From Acidobacteriota bacterium (GTDB lineage: Bacteria > Acidobacteriota > UBA6911 > RPQK01 > JAJDTT01), in contig OZ242374.1 in the NCBI GenBank assembly GCA_965209055.1, positions 4,608,001 through 4,672,000 on the forward strand: 64,000 nt of DNA. Direction: 5' to 3'. Both the position numbers and the translations under genes were made by a program. Under the pieces are notes generated by a model. It was not told the origin of the DNA and did not search any database. It saw only the letters and a list, made by a program, of their open reading frames with translations. Positions 53,708 through 58,217 of the stretch are shown piece by piece. How positions within the stretch are numbered: the first letter of the stretch is position 1; the number at the start of each line of letters is the position of its first letter.

Positions 53708-53741
53708 GTTTTTGTTCTACGCTCTTATTCGGGTCGGGGGA

Positions 53742-53780
53742 CTAACAGTCCCGTGCTCTGTCCTGCTGAGCTTGGGGCGA
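53742..53780 (-). other. tRNA 5'-half-like sequence forming the att arm of E2
   Basis: Minus strand TCGCCCC AA GCTC AGCAGGACA GAGC A CGGGA CTGTTAG (TCCC); same spacing as in E1; no T-arm. Confidence 0.8.
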
Positions 53781-53818
53781 GTGCTTTTATTGTCAAGGGT
53801 TTACGCCACTGCTCTTCT

Positions 53819-54907
53819 CTAATCATTCCCCCTATTTCCTGCCTGTTGCCTGTTTGTTGCCGGTCGCATTTGTGAGTCTTCGGTAGCCTGTGCCTTCCGA
53901 ATGCTGGCGAGTGCATGAGAACTGACGTAACCCGCGTAGCGCATGGTCGTGCTGATCGACGAGTGCCCCATCAGCTTCTGCACCGTCCTCACGTCCACCC
54001 CCTGCATCAGCCAATGGCTGCAGCGGAATCGTCTCAGGTCGTGAAATCCGACCTTCAACCCCACCCGCTCGGCGGCCCGGCGCAACGGCTTGTCCGGATT
54101 CACCCATCTCGTGCCGGTCCGGATGTTGACGAAGACGTATGGCGTGTTCAGGTAACGAACCAGCCCGACCAGGTATCCGGTGGCGTACTTCGAGAGCGGA
54201 ATCTCCCTCGGCTCGTCGTCCTTGGTGAACTCCACCCATAGCAGCCTCCGGACCAGGTCCACCCGTTTCCAGGTGAGCGACAACGCTTCGCCTTTCCGTA
54301 TCCCCGTCTCGCCGATCACCGCAACCATGGCTTGCAGGTAAGGGTTGTCCATCGCCTCGACCAGGTCGCGGAACTGTTGAACCGTCAAAGGCCGGAAGAC
54401 CTTCTTGGGTTCTTTGAGTTTGGGGAACCGAACCAGCGGGTGCGTGTCCACTTCCCCGCACTCCAGCGCGTAGGAAAACAGCTTGCTGATGGCGGCAATG
54501 TCGCGGTTCACCGTGGCCGGCTGCACTTGCTTCTTCCTCCGGGCGACGTAGCGGTACAGGTCCTTGCGTTGGAACTCCTTCAGGGGAATGTTCCCCAGCA
54601 CGGCGTTGAGGCTCTTGAACGAGAGCGCGTAGCGACGGCGGGAGCGCATGCGAGGTTTGCAATACTCCTCGAAGAAACGCTCGTAGAAGCTCCGTACCGT
54701 CCAGACGGTGCGATTCCCGCCGGCGAGCTCCTCCTTGAGCTGCTTCCAGGTGCCGTCCAGGATGCTGGACTCGATTCGTGTTTGAAGCGCCTGCGCGCTC
54801 CGGTAGTTGGGGGCGTACATTCGGAGCCGACCGGATCCGTTCGGCCAGTACTTGCTGACGACGTACCGTCGTCTCCCCCGGCGATCCTTCACCTTGTAGA
54901 TGCCCAT
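53819..54907 (-). CDS. Tyrosine recombinase/integrase (E2), about 90% identical to the E1 integrase
   Basis: All catalytic residues intact; about 37 aa differences counted by eye; start MGIYKV at 54907 with the same RBS. Confidence 0.95.
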   Translation of the reverse strand: MGIYKVKDRRGRRRYVVSKYWPNGSGRLRMYAPNYRSAQALQTRIESSILDGTWKQLKEELAGGNRTVWTVRSFYERFFEEYCKPRMRSRRRYALSFKSLNAVLGNIPLKEFQRKDLYRYVARRKKQVQPATVNRDIAAISKLFSYALECGEVDTHPLVRFPKLKEPKKVFRPLTVQQFRDLVEAMDNPYLQAMVAVIGETGIRKGEALSLTWKRVDLVRRLLWVEFTKDDEPREIPLSKYATGYLVGLVRYLNTPYVFVNIRTGTRWVNPDKPLRRAAERVGLKVGFHDLRRFRCSHWLMQGVDVRTVQKLMGHSSISTTMRYAGYVSSHALASIRKAQATEDSQMRPATNRQQAGNRGND

Positions 54908-54973
54908 GCATCTCCTCCTTTCTGGATCCGGGTTCTTCGCCGTGGGGCGAATCGTACCACGGCTCCAGAGAAC

Positions 54974-56050
54974 GGACCGGTGGGACCTGTCCCCCCAGAC
55001 CCCCCAGTGGCGCCAGAACCCGCGCCGGATCACCATTCCGGCGCTGAACCGGGCGCTTTTATTTGTCGCGTCCCATAAGAATGGGTCCCTCGCGCAGGAT
55101 TCCCGCCGCGTCTCTCGCAGGCTTCCCGGTCGGAGCAAATCTGTCCCCGGCCGAGGTGTCGCTTGAAACCCCCTCAGGCGGGAATTCTCGTGAGATCGTG
55201 AAAAAACAAGCCCGCCATCGGGCCTGTGTTGGCCCGCCGCAGCCGGACGAAGGGTTAGGTATAGGCCCCGGAGCGTCGTCCAGAAGCCTCCGGCGCGGCG
55301 CGGGGAAACAGGCAATTCTCAGCACGGGCGCAGCCCGTTAGGTAGTCCGTGAGATCCGGAGCTCGGGCGATCGGCAAGACGCGATCCTGCTTCCGGAACT
55401 CAGCCTGATGGTGAAGACGGCTGACGTCATCCGATCTTCGTGAGTAGAATCTGATGGAAGTGGGTCAATCGAAAGCAGGCCAAGGAGGCAAAGCAGATGC
55501 GCTCAGACCACACCCCCCCCACCATGCTCAGGATGGTCGTTGCCGTCGTCATCGGACTGATTGTGTTCGAGGTGGTGGCGGCGCTGTATCAGGTCGTCGC
55601 CGGGTTCTTTCTGGCGGCTTTCTGACGTCTTGCCGGGTTTTCGGCCCCAAGAGCAATCCAAAATCACGGCGATGGTAGCCGGTCGGGCCAAGGGTTCCAC
55701 CTCGATGGCCAGGCCGACATGGAAAGCGTCCTCGGTTCTGGCGATCCAGGGGAGAAAGTAAATTGCACCGGTGGGGCTGGGGGCTTGAGAGATCGGTGGC
55801 AACACTGAACTGGAGGCAAAACGACGCACCCTGTGGGAAATCTCTGATTTTCCACAGGGTGGGGAGGTTCGTTGAGACGAAGCTCGATCCCTCTTTGGAG
55901 AGTTCTTTGGTGGGTATGTGTCTCTTCGCATCCGGGGGGTTCGGGGGGGCTGGCCCCACCGCTACGAGCGTCAGGTTCACGGTCGGCTTGGTGTGCCGAA
56001 CGGGGTTCAGGCGCACCAGGGGGGTCTGGGGGGACAGGTCCACCCGGTCC
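54974..56050. repeat. 84-bp imperfect inverted repeats (54974-55057 / 55967-56050) bounding the E2 cargo
   Basis: Perfect 23-bp core GGACCTGTCCCCCCAGACCCCCC (54983-55005) with its reverse complement at 56019-56041. Confidence 0.8.
55497..55625 (+). CDS. Small hydrophobic single-TM peptide (42 aa), absent from the ORF track
   Basis: AAGGAGG RBS; MRSDHTPPTMLRMVVAVVIGLIVFEVVAALYQVVAGFFLAAF*. Confidence 0.5.
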   Translation: MRSDHTPPTMLRMVVAVVIGLIVFEVVAALYQVVAGFFLAAF

Positions 56051-56061
56051 TCGGTCTTCTT

Positions 56062-56375
56062 CCGGGCCTTCCCGCAGGGAGAATTGAGACGGGAGCGACC
56101 CCCCCAGGGGGTGTTGCGCAAATGTGAATTGCGCAACGCCCCCGCGCCCGCACCGGGCAGCAAAAAGGGGGGGTCGCTCCCGTCCACCTCCGATTTCCCC
56201 GTGCAGGCGCCGGCGTTCGGGGGTAGGGGACCGTAACTGACTGAAAGGAAAACAGATCGGGGAAAGCAGAGGTGTGAATCACCGGGACCGCCTTTTGTGA
56301 ATCCACCCCCCATGTCCCATTCACATCCCGGATCAGGCGCGAGACCCCTTGACGCACACCCGAACCGAGTCTCCA
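56062..56375. other. Conserved structured non-coding module of E2
   Basis: Homologue of 43068-43381 with the same nested stems and TGTGAAT motifs. Confidence 0.7.
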
Positions 56376-56888
56376 AAAACCATTGCGGCACCGAGAGTGG
56401 TCATCTCGATCACAACTGAGACGGAGCGATCCTCCACCCGCGGTGCGCTGCCATCCAGGAGCGCAGACCCTTGGCGGCCACATGCTCCGGATCGACACCG
56501 ACGAGGACGACCCTGTCGTCCTCGTCGGCAATCGGCAGTTTGAACGCCAAGGAGCGCCGAGTCTTCCCCACCGTGCCGTAGTACACTTGCCGGGGATGCC
56601 GATTCATGGGAACGTCGCGCCGTTGGAAGCCGGACACCTTCGGCCTCAGGCTGAGTCCTGCGGTGGAGCCAAACGGTCGGCAAAGCCTATCGGATAAGGT
56701 CTCTGAGCCAGGCAACGGAAGGGGGAAAACGGGCGCGGCGGCGTTCAGGAACCGATTCGGCTGCCTGTTTGTTGCCTGTTCAGTATGTCAAACATGGGGA
56801 GTCAACCACCTTACCGGTCCGGCGAAGAACCCGGTAACATATTGAAAACGTTAACGTTCGGTAGTCTTTGACTGTGAGACAGTTGGGA

Positions 56889-58217
56889 CTAACAGTCCCC
56901 CCTCCCAACCTGGCGCGGCTTGAGAAGCCGCTGGAGCCGGGGGCTCTCCTCAAGAATGATGGTCTCGGACCGGTTCGGACCGGTGGAGATGATGGAGATG
57001 TCCGCACCGGTGAGTTCGCCAAGCCGATGCAGGTAGGACTTGGCCTTCTCCGGCAGGTTTTCGTAATCCTGGATGTCGGACGTGTCCTGCTGCCAGCCGG
57101 GATGGGTCTCGTAGATGGGGCTCACGTCTTCGAGAGCTCCCACGTCGGTGGGAAAACTCGTCAACCGGCTCCCCCGGTAGCGGTAGCCGGTGCAGATCCG
57201 AAGCTCCTTCAAGTGGTCCAGAACGTCCAATTTGGTGACCACCAGCGTGTCCACGTGGTTGATCAGATTGCTGTACCGGGCCACGACGGCATCGAACCAT
57301 CCGCAACGCCGGGGCCGCCCCGTGGTGGCGCCGTACTCGACGCCCCGCTCCCGGATCTCCTCCCCTTCCGCACCCTCCAGCTCGGTGGGAAACGGGCCGC
57401 CTCCAACCCGGGTCGTATAGGCCTTGGTGATTCCCATCACTCCGTCGATGGCGCCCGGCCCCACGCCGCTGCCGGTGCAAGCTCCGCCGGCCGTGGCGTT
57501 CGAAGAGGTGACGAACGGGTAGGTGCCGTGATCCACGTCCAGCAGCGTGCCCTGGGCGCCCTCGAAGAGGATGTTCTTCCCCCGCCGGATCTCCCGGTTC
57601 AGATACTCCGCCGTGTCGGTGACATAGGAGGCGATCCGTTCGCCGATGCCCAGATAGGTCTCCTCGATCTGGTCGGTGTCCACCCCGCCGCAGCCGTAGA
57701 CCCGGTCCAGAATGCGGTTCTTCAAACCCGCATAGTTCCGGAGCTTCGAGCGAAAGAGCCGCGGTGACAACAGGTCGCCGACCCGGATGCCCCTCCGGGC
57801 CATCTTGTCCTCATAGCAGGGTCCGATGCCCCGGCTCGTGGTCCCGATCTTCGCCTTGCCCAACCGGCGTTCCTCGGCGCCCTCCAACAGCCGGTGGTAG
57901 GGCATGATCAGGTGTGCCCGGTTGCTGACATGAAGCCGCCCCCGCAAGGAAAATTCCCCCAGCGCCAGCAGCTCCTCTTCCAGAGCCACCGGATCCACGA
58001 CGACCCCGTTGCCGATGACACAAGCCTTGCCGGGGTGCAGGATCCCGGACGGGATCAGGTGGAGGACATACTTGGCGCCCGCCACCAGAACGGTGTGCCC
58101 GGCATTGTGGCCACCCTGGTAGCGAGCGACGACGTCGAAATGACGTGTCGTCAGATCGACGATTTTTCCTTTGCCTTCGTCACCCCATTGGGTGCCGACG
58201 ATCACGACGTTAGCCAT
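56889..58217 (-). CDS. purA: Adenylosuccinate synthetase
   Basis: [29 protein letters not shown] and [14 protein letters not shown] motifs. Confidence 0.98.

Follow-up and report, generated by a model that had tools for sequence, protein, structure and literature searches.

Two related tyrosine-integrase elements, here called E1 and E2, lie in a 64,000-nucleotide stretch of an Acidobacteriota genome (the window; assembly GCA_965209055.1, contig OZ242374.1, positions 4,608,001 to 4,672,000), and each is bounded by a short direct repeat, or core. E2 is a 3.15-kb insertion at window positions 53742-56895, and E1 spans positions 36892-44892. Both belong to one family of integrase elements and have in common the left ~1.2 kb, an internal block of ~320 bp and the right ~135 bp. 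Throughout the genome, members of this family carry the same 7-mer at both ends, and in each class this 7-mer is also the loop of a repeated hairpin. We propose that the element-borne 7-mer very probably sets the target of integration.

Matched 7-bp cores in E1 and E2

The exact direct repeat of E2 is the 15-bp sequence GGGACTAACAGTCCC, which forms the identity block of the left junction (attL, 53738-53752) and of the right junction (attR, 56885-56899) and has two exact plus-strand matches in the window. It includes the 7-mer CTAACAG, at 53742-53748 on the left and 56889-56895 on the right. The 7-mer of E1 is TAGGAAA, located at 36892-36898 in the left junction and at 44886-44892 at the right end, and mismatches flank it directly on both sides. 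The inner flanks of the two elements are alike, with GGGA immediately before the core at the right end and TCC immediately after it at the left end. The register of the 7-mer that is common to both was set by the alignment of E1 with E2. The two cores and their conserved inner flanks are as described in an earlier reading of the window made from the sequence alone (the original prediction).

The integrase genes lie on the minus strand, close to the left ends. That of E2 (53819-54907) encodes 362 amino acids and that of E1 (36973-38058) encodes 361, and both products match PF00589 (E values of 6.6e-26 and 2.8e-25, respectively). Residues R204, H289, R292, H315 and Y324 of the E2 integrase align with the catalytic residues of XerD. 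An open reading frame (ORF) at 53832-54911 was considered as the integrase gene of E2 and rejected; it overlaps the integrase gene in the wrong frame and its product has no similarity to the E1 integrase.

Cores of all copies in the genome and its relatives

The survey of copies covered the single-contig, 6.08-Mb genome that contains the window (G000). It revealed 26 full-length copies of the integrase, 89 to 100% identical and without internal stops, besides fragments. Element ends were found by BLAST and anchored on the conserved inner motifs, and 25 copies, with sizes of 2.7 to 25 kb, had both ends. In every one of them the left 7-mer equals the right one, a match with a chance of 4^-7 per element, and GGGA and TCC adjoin the right and left cores in 25 of 25. 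The copies fall into five core classes, namely CTAACAG (8 copies), CTGTTAG (7), TTGGAAA (5), TAGGAAA (4) and TTAGAAA (1). The original prediction had allowed that the repeat of E1 might be coincidental or that all other copies might share one core; the tabulation over all copies supports neither. Left outside the pairing were the 26th integrase, in which the sequence record ends (6076041-6077120), two decayed left ends with no right partner, and four right ends with no left partner, including that of the record-end copy. Among the minimal, 2.7-kb elements, two pairs (2974091/3007196 and 4497909/6056904) have identical or near-identical integrases at different loci.

The block of identity between left and right ends measures exactly 7 bp, with mismatches on both sides, in four copies, three with the core TAGGAAA and one with TTGGAAA. 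The exchange must therefore fall within these 7 bp.

Four relatives (G003, G004, G005 and G007), whose ends were paired by position and strand, yielded 11 more left/right pairs, all matching, and 4 left ends without a partner. Thus, mixed 7-mers occur in 0 of 25 pairs in this genome and in 0 of 11 in the relatives. The relatives add the cores CAGGAAA, AGGAAAG, CTAGAAA (two), CTGGAAG and TTAGAAG, so that at least ten different 7-bp overlaps are found in one genus. The CAGGAAA and AGGAAAG elements occupy the same kind of hairpin, GGGA-CAGGAAAG-TCCC, in registers one base apart, as expected if the spacer of attP is fixed at 7 bp. Many cores are linked by single-base steps: TTAGAAG, TTAGAAA, TTGGAAA, TAGGAAA and CAGGAAA form one series, TTAGAAA leads to CTAGAAA, and CTAAAAG leads to CTAACAG. 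This network is compatible with the capture of secondary sites with one mismatch followed by heteroduplex resolution, the first possibility raised in the original prediction, and point mutation of attP fits it equally well; new overlaps may have arisen by either route.

Each core is the loop of a repeated hairpin

Each core class corresponds to the loop of one multicopy family of palindromic repeats. These repeats resemble repetitive extragenic palindromic (REP) sequences in being short, imperfectly palindromic, multicopy and intergenic, and they form clusters between convergent genes. At the locus of E1, the relatives G008 and G001 have the same flanking genes and an uninterrupted CAGTGGGGG-TAGGAAA-ACCCCCACTCC. 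At the locus of E2, both have an uninterrupted GGGGA-CTAACAG-TCCCC followed by the same right flank as in the window. In the relatives, the empty sites thus contain a single 7-mer, which forms the loop of a hairpin that was there before any insertion. Because it is already present there, the 7-mer represents the overlap of strand exchange between attP and attB rather than a target-site duplication. Of the two possibilities offered in the original prediction, the second, a correspondence between variants of attP and variants of REP loops, is the one borne out by the equality of loops and cores and by the empty sites.

The genome contains 137 sequences of the form GGCGA-N7-TCGCC, with the loop TTTCCAA/TTGGAAA in 79 and TTAGAAA/TTTCTAA in 14, and 37 of the form GGGA-N7-TCCC with the loop CTGTTAG/CTAACAG, element junctions included. 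When free sites were counted as hairpins with a stem of at least 4 bp, element junctions excluded, TTGGAAA had 137 (both orientations), TTAGAAA 22, CTAACAG/CTGTTAG 16, TAGGAAA 3 and TTAGAAG 1, the tRNA. A longer conserved unit encloses the TTGGAAA hairpin, and there are tandem arrays of hairpins as well. One such array, at G000:C1:4101366-4101700, consists of ~43-bp units, each with a GGGCGATTAGAAATCGCC hairpin, at least seven of them in a row. The stems of the targets differ and include GGGGGA/TCCCCC, GGCGA/TCGCC, GTGGGGG/CCCCCAC and the anticodon stem ACGGA/TCCGT.

CTGTTAG is the reverse complement of CTAACAG, and elements of both classes reside in the same repeat, gaaga-GGGGGGA-loop-TCCCCCC-tcct. 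The flanks of this repeat are asymmetric (gaaga..GGGGGA on one side, TCCCCCCTCCT on the other) and reveal the orientation of insertion. All eight CTAACAG elements point one way and all seven CTGTTAG elements the opposite way; the four TTGGAAA copies in GCGA stems likewise share one fixed orientation relative to their repeat flanks. Since the two arms of the hairpin mirror each other, nothing but the asymmetry of the overlap would determine which way an element inserts.

The DNA around the two elements (53630-53737 and 36850-36891) contains more REP-like hairpins, among them GGCGGTTTTCTTACCGCC, GGGAC-GGCA-GTCCC and GGGGAC-CTTCCT-GTCCC. The same loci in the relatives have different sets of hairpins, which indicates that these gaps between convergent genes are hot spots for repeats. 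The genome also yielded two weak matches to PF01797 (Y1 transposase), of 30.8 and 23.6 bits. The 30.8-bit match (G000:C1:1142970-1143203) lies near the sole TTAGAAA element, ~570 bp away from its left junction, and may represent a gene akin to those of REP-associated tyrosine transposases, beside its repeats.

Origin from a tRNA-Arg integrase

Just inside the left core, the minus strand of the elements reads as the 5' half of a tRNA, with the acceptor arm, the D arm and the 5' strand of the anticodon stem, and the core stands in the position of the anticodon loop. ARAGORN found no tRNA gene in the window, and these tRNA-like left ends are therefore fragments. The segment in E1 (36899-36935) is 93.9% identical over 33 nucleotides (nt) to the real tRNA-Arg(tct) gene of the genome, of anticodon UCU. 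In comparison with the same gene, the segment of E2 (53749-53790), which lies directly inside the left core, is a decayed remnant in which a D-arm-like GCTCAGCAGGACAGAGC and an anticodon-stem arm can be recognized.

In G003, a member of the same genus, an integrase with 86% identity lies immediately upstream of a complete tRNA-Arg(tct) gene. The conserved right end lies about 47 kb from there and leads into TTAGAAG and a further copy of the tRNA 5' half, so that the identity block of this element comprises TTAGAAG and 32 more nt (39 bp). It is an ordinary tRNA-gene island, with crossover in the anticodon loop and a 5' half supplied by attP. More distant homologues of the integrase (71% and ~51% identity) adjoin a tRNA-Arg gene or fragment in all five examined cases, some of them tRNA-Arg(tcg) with the core TTCGAAG. 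Thus, tRNA genes serve as attachment sites in G003 and for homologues in G035, G010, G012 and G009, whereas E1 and E2 are flanked by hairpin repeats. The tRNA-Arg sites of the relatives indicate that the hairpin-targeting elements derive from an integrase specific for the anticodon loop of tRNA-Arg; the ancestral target of the lineage was the anticodon loop of tRNA-Arg(UCU). The original prediction, which had the match between overlap and REP loop right, missed this origin.

When the anticodon arm ACGGA-CTTCTAA-TCCGT is set beside the repeat GGCGA-TTTCCAA-TCGCC, the GA/TC positions that border the loop agree, as do five of the seven bases within it. The switch from tRNA to repeat would thus have been a small step.

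The genome G035 has two identical integrases of the 71% homologue, and the ends around them cannot be matched in a simple way. A tRNA-Arg(tct) gene adjoins one end, and TTCGAAG together with a 5' fragment of tRNA-Arg is found at another, which suggests that two elements, each in one of the two tRNA-Arg genes, have undergone an inversion between them.

The core follows the att-proximal DNA, not the integrase

We compared the proteins of 22 integrase copies; three of the 25 were left out since extraction required an MGIYK start. The integrases of E1 and E2 were called near-identical in the original prediction, but with 90% identity (324 of 360 residues) they are merely similar. The claim that near-identical integrases use different cores nevertheless holds for another pair, E2 (CTAACAG) and the copy at 2828067 (CTGTTAG), whose 98.9% identity (four differences in 359 amino acids) is the highest between classes. 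The lowest identity within a class, 91.9%, is below that value. No alignment column separates the CTAACAG from the CTGTTAG integrases, and eight columns are diagnostic for three larger groups. In the integrase tree, a TAGGAAA clade and a clade of TTAGAAA and TTGGAAA are supported, and the CTAACAG and CTGTTAG proteins are intermixed.

In contrast to the integrases, the inner ~100 bp of the left end and the last ~20 bp of the right end sort perfectly by core class. These data directly support the conclusion that the core class follows the att-proximal sequence of the element, not its integrase protein. An interpretation of the intermixed tree as repeated flips of the core was rejected, because the att-proximal ~100 bp differ strongly between the CTAACAG and CTGTTAG classes, whose integrase genes are nearly identical. 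This combination suggests that elements have recombined with one another inside the integrase gene.

Arm motifs, a conserved block and the search for a guide

The motif TGCCTGTTTGTTGCC, a doubled sequence, is present in the same orientation on both arms in elements of all classes, ~100 bp from the core on the integrase side (P' arm) and ~113 bp from it on the other (P arm). It occurs 46 times in the genome, that is, about two times per element. In E2, the P' copy (53847-53861, plus strand) is within the 3' end of the integrase gene, and the P copy (56762-56776) lies in the conserved right end (56758-56888, plus strand), which terminates in TTGGGA. The corresponding positions in E1 are 36998-37012, again in the 3' end of the integrase gene, and 44759-44773, in a conserved right end (44755-44892, plus strand) that closes with GGGA and the overlap. 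We regard the doubled motif as a putative arm-type integrase site.

According to the DNA coverage of the 25 elements, just three parts are present in all of them: a left end that includes the integrase, a block of ~320 bp and the right end. This coverage revealed no excisionase gene common to all elements, although a diverged one could escape it. The block, located at 56060-56380 in E2 (plus strand) and at 43067-43420 in E1, is non-coding and contains a ~100-nt hairpin, GACGGGAGCGACCCCCCC...GGGGGGGTCGCTCCCGTC, around an inner hairpin, GTTGCGCAA-ATGTGAA-TTGCGCAAC. Compensatory changes in the inner stem convert A-T to G-C in five copies, with G.T intermediates (on the plus strand) in three, and the hairpin is followed by three direct TGTGAAT motifs and one inverted copy. 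The z-scores of folding are -5.6 for the plus strand and -3.6 for the minus strand, and a search of E2 against Rfam gave no match at E values up to 1. The block could be an RNA, an origin or a transfer site. Its variation among elements is mosaic and unrelated to the core class.

A search by eye in the original prediction had found no guide-like matches to the cores elsewhere in the elements, and systematic counts agree with it: when each core and its complement were counted inside every element, and the alignment of the block was inspected, nothing specific to a class emerged. The single internal TAGGAAA is located in the integrase gene of nearly all classes.

Proposed mechanism and its alternatives

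In our view, these observations are very probably explained by a lambda-type tyrosine integrase whose overlaps must match hairpin loops, so that the overlap borne by the element sets the target. The attP of the excised circle would consist, in order, of a P arm (~135 bp, with the doubled TTGCCTGTT ~113 bp from the core), GGGA, the 7-bp overlap, TCC and a P' arm. The P' arm would contain what is left of the tRNA-Arg 5' half as well as another copy of the doubled motif, ~100 bp from the core and within the 3' end of the integrase gene. The attB would be a short palindrome with the geometry of an anticodon stem-loop, in which G-rich and C-rich arms ending in GA/TC (or GG/AC) surround a 7-nt loop. 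The integrase would bind these inverted arms and exchange strands at both edges of the 7 bp, and the reaction would go to completion only with identical overlaps in attP and attB, which would leave the 7-mer on either side of the inserted element. The overlap carried by each lineage of elements would be the one found in the loops of a single subfamily of REP-like hairpins, and CTAACAG and CTGTTAG elements would enter the same hairpin family in opposite directions. The identical 7-mers in 25 of 25 copies and in the 11 pairs of the relatives, the 7-bp identity blocks and the GGGA and TCC flanks are the traits of a lambda-type reaction; neither the non-identical coupling sequences typical of Tn916 and CTnDOT nor a duplication of target sequence alone was found.

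Several points weigh against this explanation. No recombination event was observed: in public runs of one sample, available as assembled contigs only, four runs contain 72 to 76% of the sampled words and a 117-nt contig spans the occupied left junction, and the contigs include no circle junction or empty site, which is uninformative either way; no RNA run was listed among those with this DNA. A conservative integrase alone does not explain 26 copies, and a replication or transfer step is therefore missing from the model. The empty E2 site in G008 and G001 differs from the reconstructed one, in that a further hairpin of 27 nt separates the CTAACAG hairpin from the left flank in these relatives, where G000 has a single hairpin (window 53700-53748); a deletion between two GGGGGA arms or turnover of the repeats could account for this difference. 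The arms adjacent to the overlap vary among targets (GGGA, GCGA or GGGG on one side, TCC, TCG or ACC on the other), which implies either a loose recognition of the core sites or that something besides sequence is read. Except for CTAACAG and CTGTTAG, the integrases of different classes differ by 18 to 35 residues, so that some co-adaptation of integrase to core may exist for those pairs of classes. Lastly, ~90 residues precede the part of the integrase that aligns with Xer proteins, and no arm-binding domain was recognized at the N-terminus: a Pfam search with residues 1 to 95 gave no match, and a single-sequence AlphaFold model, with three strands and a helix, is too poor for a fold search (mean pLDDT of 36).

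The variation of the core-adjacent arms and the fact that all targets are perfect or near-perfect hairpins, with loops of 7 to 8 nt on differing stems, would suit an integrase that recombines a folded hairpin, i.e., an extruded cruciform or single-stranded DNA, and reads its structure rather than the sequence of its arms, as with integron attC sites or in XerCD/CTX-like systems. However, an inverted repeat around an overlap of 6 to 8 bp is also the ordinary core site of a tyrosine recombinase acting on double-stranded DNA, so this geometry does not discriminate. The arms of attP pair over only 3 to 4 bp (GGGA with TCC or TCCC) and would form a poor hairpin, and the overlap is found on both sides of the product, as after double-strand exchange. 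We thus find recombination of a folded site decidedly unlikely. It is also unlikely that the integrase reads hairpin geometry with the 7-nt loop as an exchangeable address, which would amount to a natural, protein-only, loop-programmable mode of insertion that escaped from the tRNA gene to any family of hairpin repeats and spread in the manner of a transposon, with the conservative chemistry of an integrase retained. A determinant of the core outside attP seems scarcely credible. Every element does have a structured non-coding block, and eight integrase columns are diagnostic for the three major groups, as might be expected if an element-encoded RNA similar to the bridge RNA of IS110, or class-specific residues of the integrase, specified the core. 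Nevertheless, the block is mosaic irrespective of class, Rfam returned nothing, internal matches to the cores are not class specific, different cores go with integrases of 98.9% identity, and CTAACAG is not split from CTGTTAG by any alignment column.

Short identical direct repeats, many copies and insertion into repeated palindromes are reminiscent of insertion sequences (IS) and transposons, and the 7-mer could in principle be a target-site duplication generated by staggered cuts, by a core-less element able to use any hairpin loop. This is very improbable. The core class is inherited together with the att-proximal sequence, the orientation within classes is fixed (8 of 8, 7 of 7 and the four TTGGAAA copies in GCGA stems), and the repeat extends to 39 bp of element-borne tRNA sequence in G003 and to 15 bp in E2. 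In addition, the chemistry of tyrosine recombinases yields no target duplication. Closely related elements with different cores, and the single-base steps between cores that make one-mismatch events plausible, might argue for an integrase tolerant of heterology, like those of Tn916 and CTnDOT, with later repair or replication making the cores identical after integration into a non-matching site. Routine tolerance would give mixed junctions and unmatched targets, whereas no pair has unlike 7-mers (0 of 25 and 0 of 11) and, as the empty sites show, every hairpin occupied by a class had the core of that class as its loop beforehand. We consider a heterology-tolerant integrase highly improbable as well.

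Cargo genes and other features of the window

The cargo region of E1 (38643-44660) resembles a defence module. It contains a weakly matching HNH-like ORF (38643-39698), an ORF of 931 amino acids similar to Eco57I-like methyltransferase/restriction proteins (40025-42820) and an ORF for a nuclease like NucS, with similarity to NucS-C (43605-44660). E2 has a 42-codon ORF on the plus strand (55497-55625), preceded by AAGGAGG, whose peptide is by eye mostly hydrophobic; this segment is present in only four elements. Unrelated to the elements, the window has several families of long direct repeats between 17600 and 21000, with periods of 396 to 402 and 702 bp and identities of 66 to 89%, which are probably part of a gene for a repetitive protein. 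The host genome carries PSCyt, PSD1 and DUF1501 gene families, by which the analysis placed it among the planctomycetes; the assembly record lists it under Acidobacteriota.

Significance and comparison with known systems

The elements amount to a natural experiment in integrase retargeting, which started from the anticodon loop of tRNA-Arg(UCU) and ended at the loops of several hairpin families. The choice of site sits in a few bases of attP, not in the protein, and an inverted overlap turns the insertion around. Once its target is a repeat, a site-specific element can attain the copy number of a transposon, and hairpin repeats are possible landing pads for cargo such as the restriction-modification-like and nuclease genes of E1. 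For engineering, the elements would offer a ready-made panel of candidate matched attP/attB pairs for a single enzyme. The mechanism is classical, and the tRNA-Arg relative is an ordinary one; the principle of overlap identity is textbook knowledge, which limits the surprise. Full-text literature searches, judged at the level of search results, returned no description of REP-targeting tyrosine-integrase elements, also in Planctomycetes. The move of a lineage of tRNA-anticodon-loop integrases onto the loops of REP-like hairpins appears to be new, as do the transposon-like copy number and the range of overlaps within a single genus, which number ten or more and include a reverse-complement pair.

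Elements of the IS110/IS1111 type target REP hairpins by means of DEDD transposases, some of which use bridge RNAs. The present elements similarly exploit repeated palindromes as multicopy landing sites and thereby reach many copies per genome, but they do so with a tyrosine integrase, and the search for a guide was negative. In integrons, at attC sites, and in CTX phage, tyrosine recombinases act on folded single strands. The sites described here are hairpin shaped as well; in contrast, the arms of attP pair over just 3 to 4 bp and the overlap is kept at both junctions.

That identity of the overlap governs specificity is established for tyrosine recombinases, and the saf mutants and secondary att sites of lambda, like the spacer variants of lox and FRT, show that a change in the overlap alters the partner site. 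For the mv4 integrase, a preprint reports that any 7-bp overlap works in vitro if it is identical in attP and attB (bioRxiv 10.1101/2023.11.06.565760). The present system resembles mv4 in its 7-bp overlap of free composition between inverted core sites, in a partner that follows the overlap and, most likely, in the need for identity. It differs from mv4, lambda, lox and FRT, which are laboratory or single-mutant cases, by a natural set of overlaps, each with many chromosomal sites, and by a reverse-complement pair that flips the orientation.

Sublocation classes of integration into tRNA genes were reportedly defined by Williams in 2002. Like the integrases that use tRNA anticodon loops, those of E1 and E2 would cross over on a 7-nt loop with a symmetric stem, and the elements have the integrase gene beside attP and in attP a tRNA fragment, of the kind that rebuilds the gene in anticodon-loop islands. 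Unlike such islands, all 25 paired copies, E1 and E2 among them, reside in REP-like hairpins, with up to 26 copies per genome. According to the Islander survey, islands with a 5' fragment number 159 of 3919 and anticodon-centred sites 2083 (PMC4383910). By these figures, the tRNA 5' half in attP, as found here, is a minority arrangement.

Related integrases that use several sites, including tRNA-Arg(TCT), are described in reports on the archaeal Int(pT26-2) integrases (PMC7253208) and on the HE-PICI clade (PMC10111431). The latter also notes a doubled motif in HE-PICI attPs, with two co-oriented copies at 81 and 132 bp from the centre and a suggested role in binding the arm domain (PMC10111431), and the doubled TTGCCTGTT of the present elements, located ~100 and ~113 bp from the core, closely resembles this arrangement. 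Integrase subclades of Int(pT26-2) and HE-PICI track groups of sites and the targets are genes, whereas here the core classes intermix and the targets are non-coding repeats.

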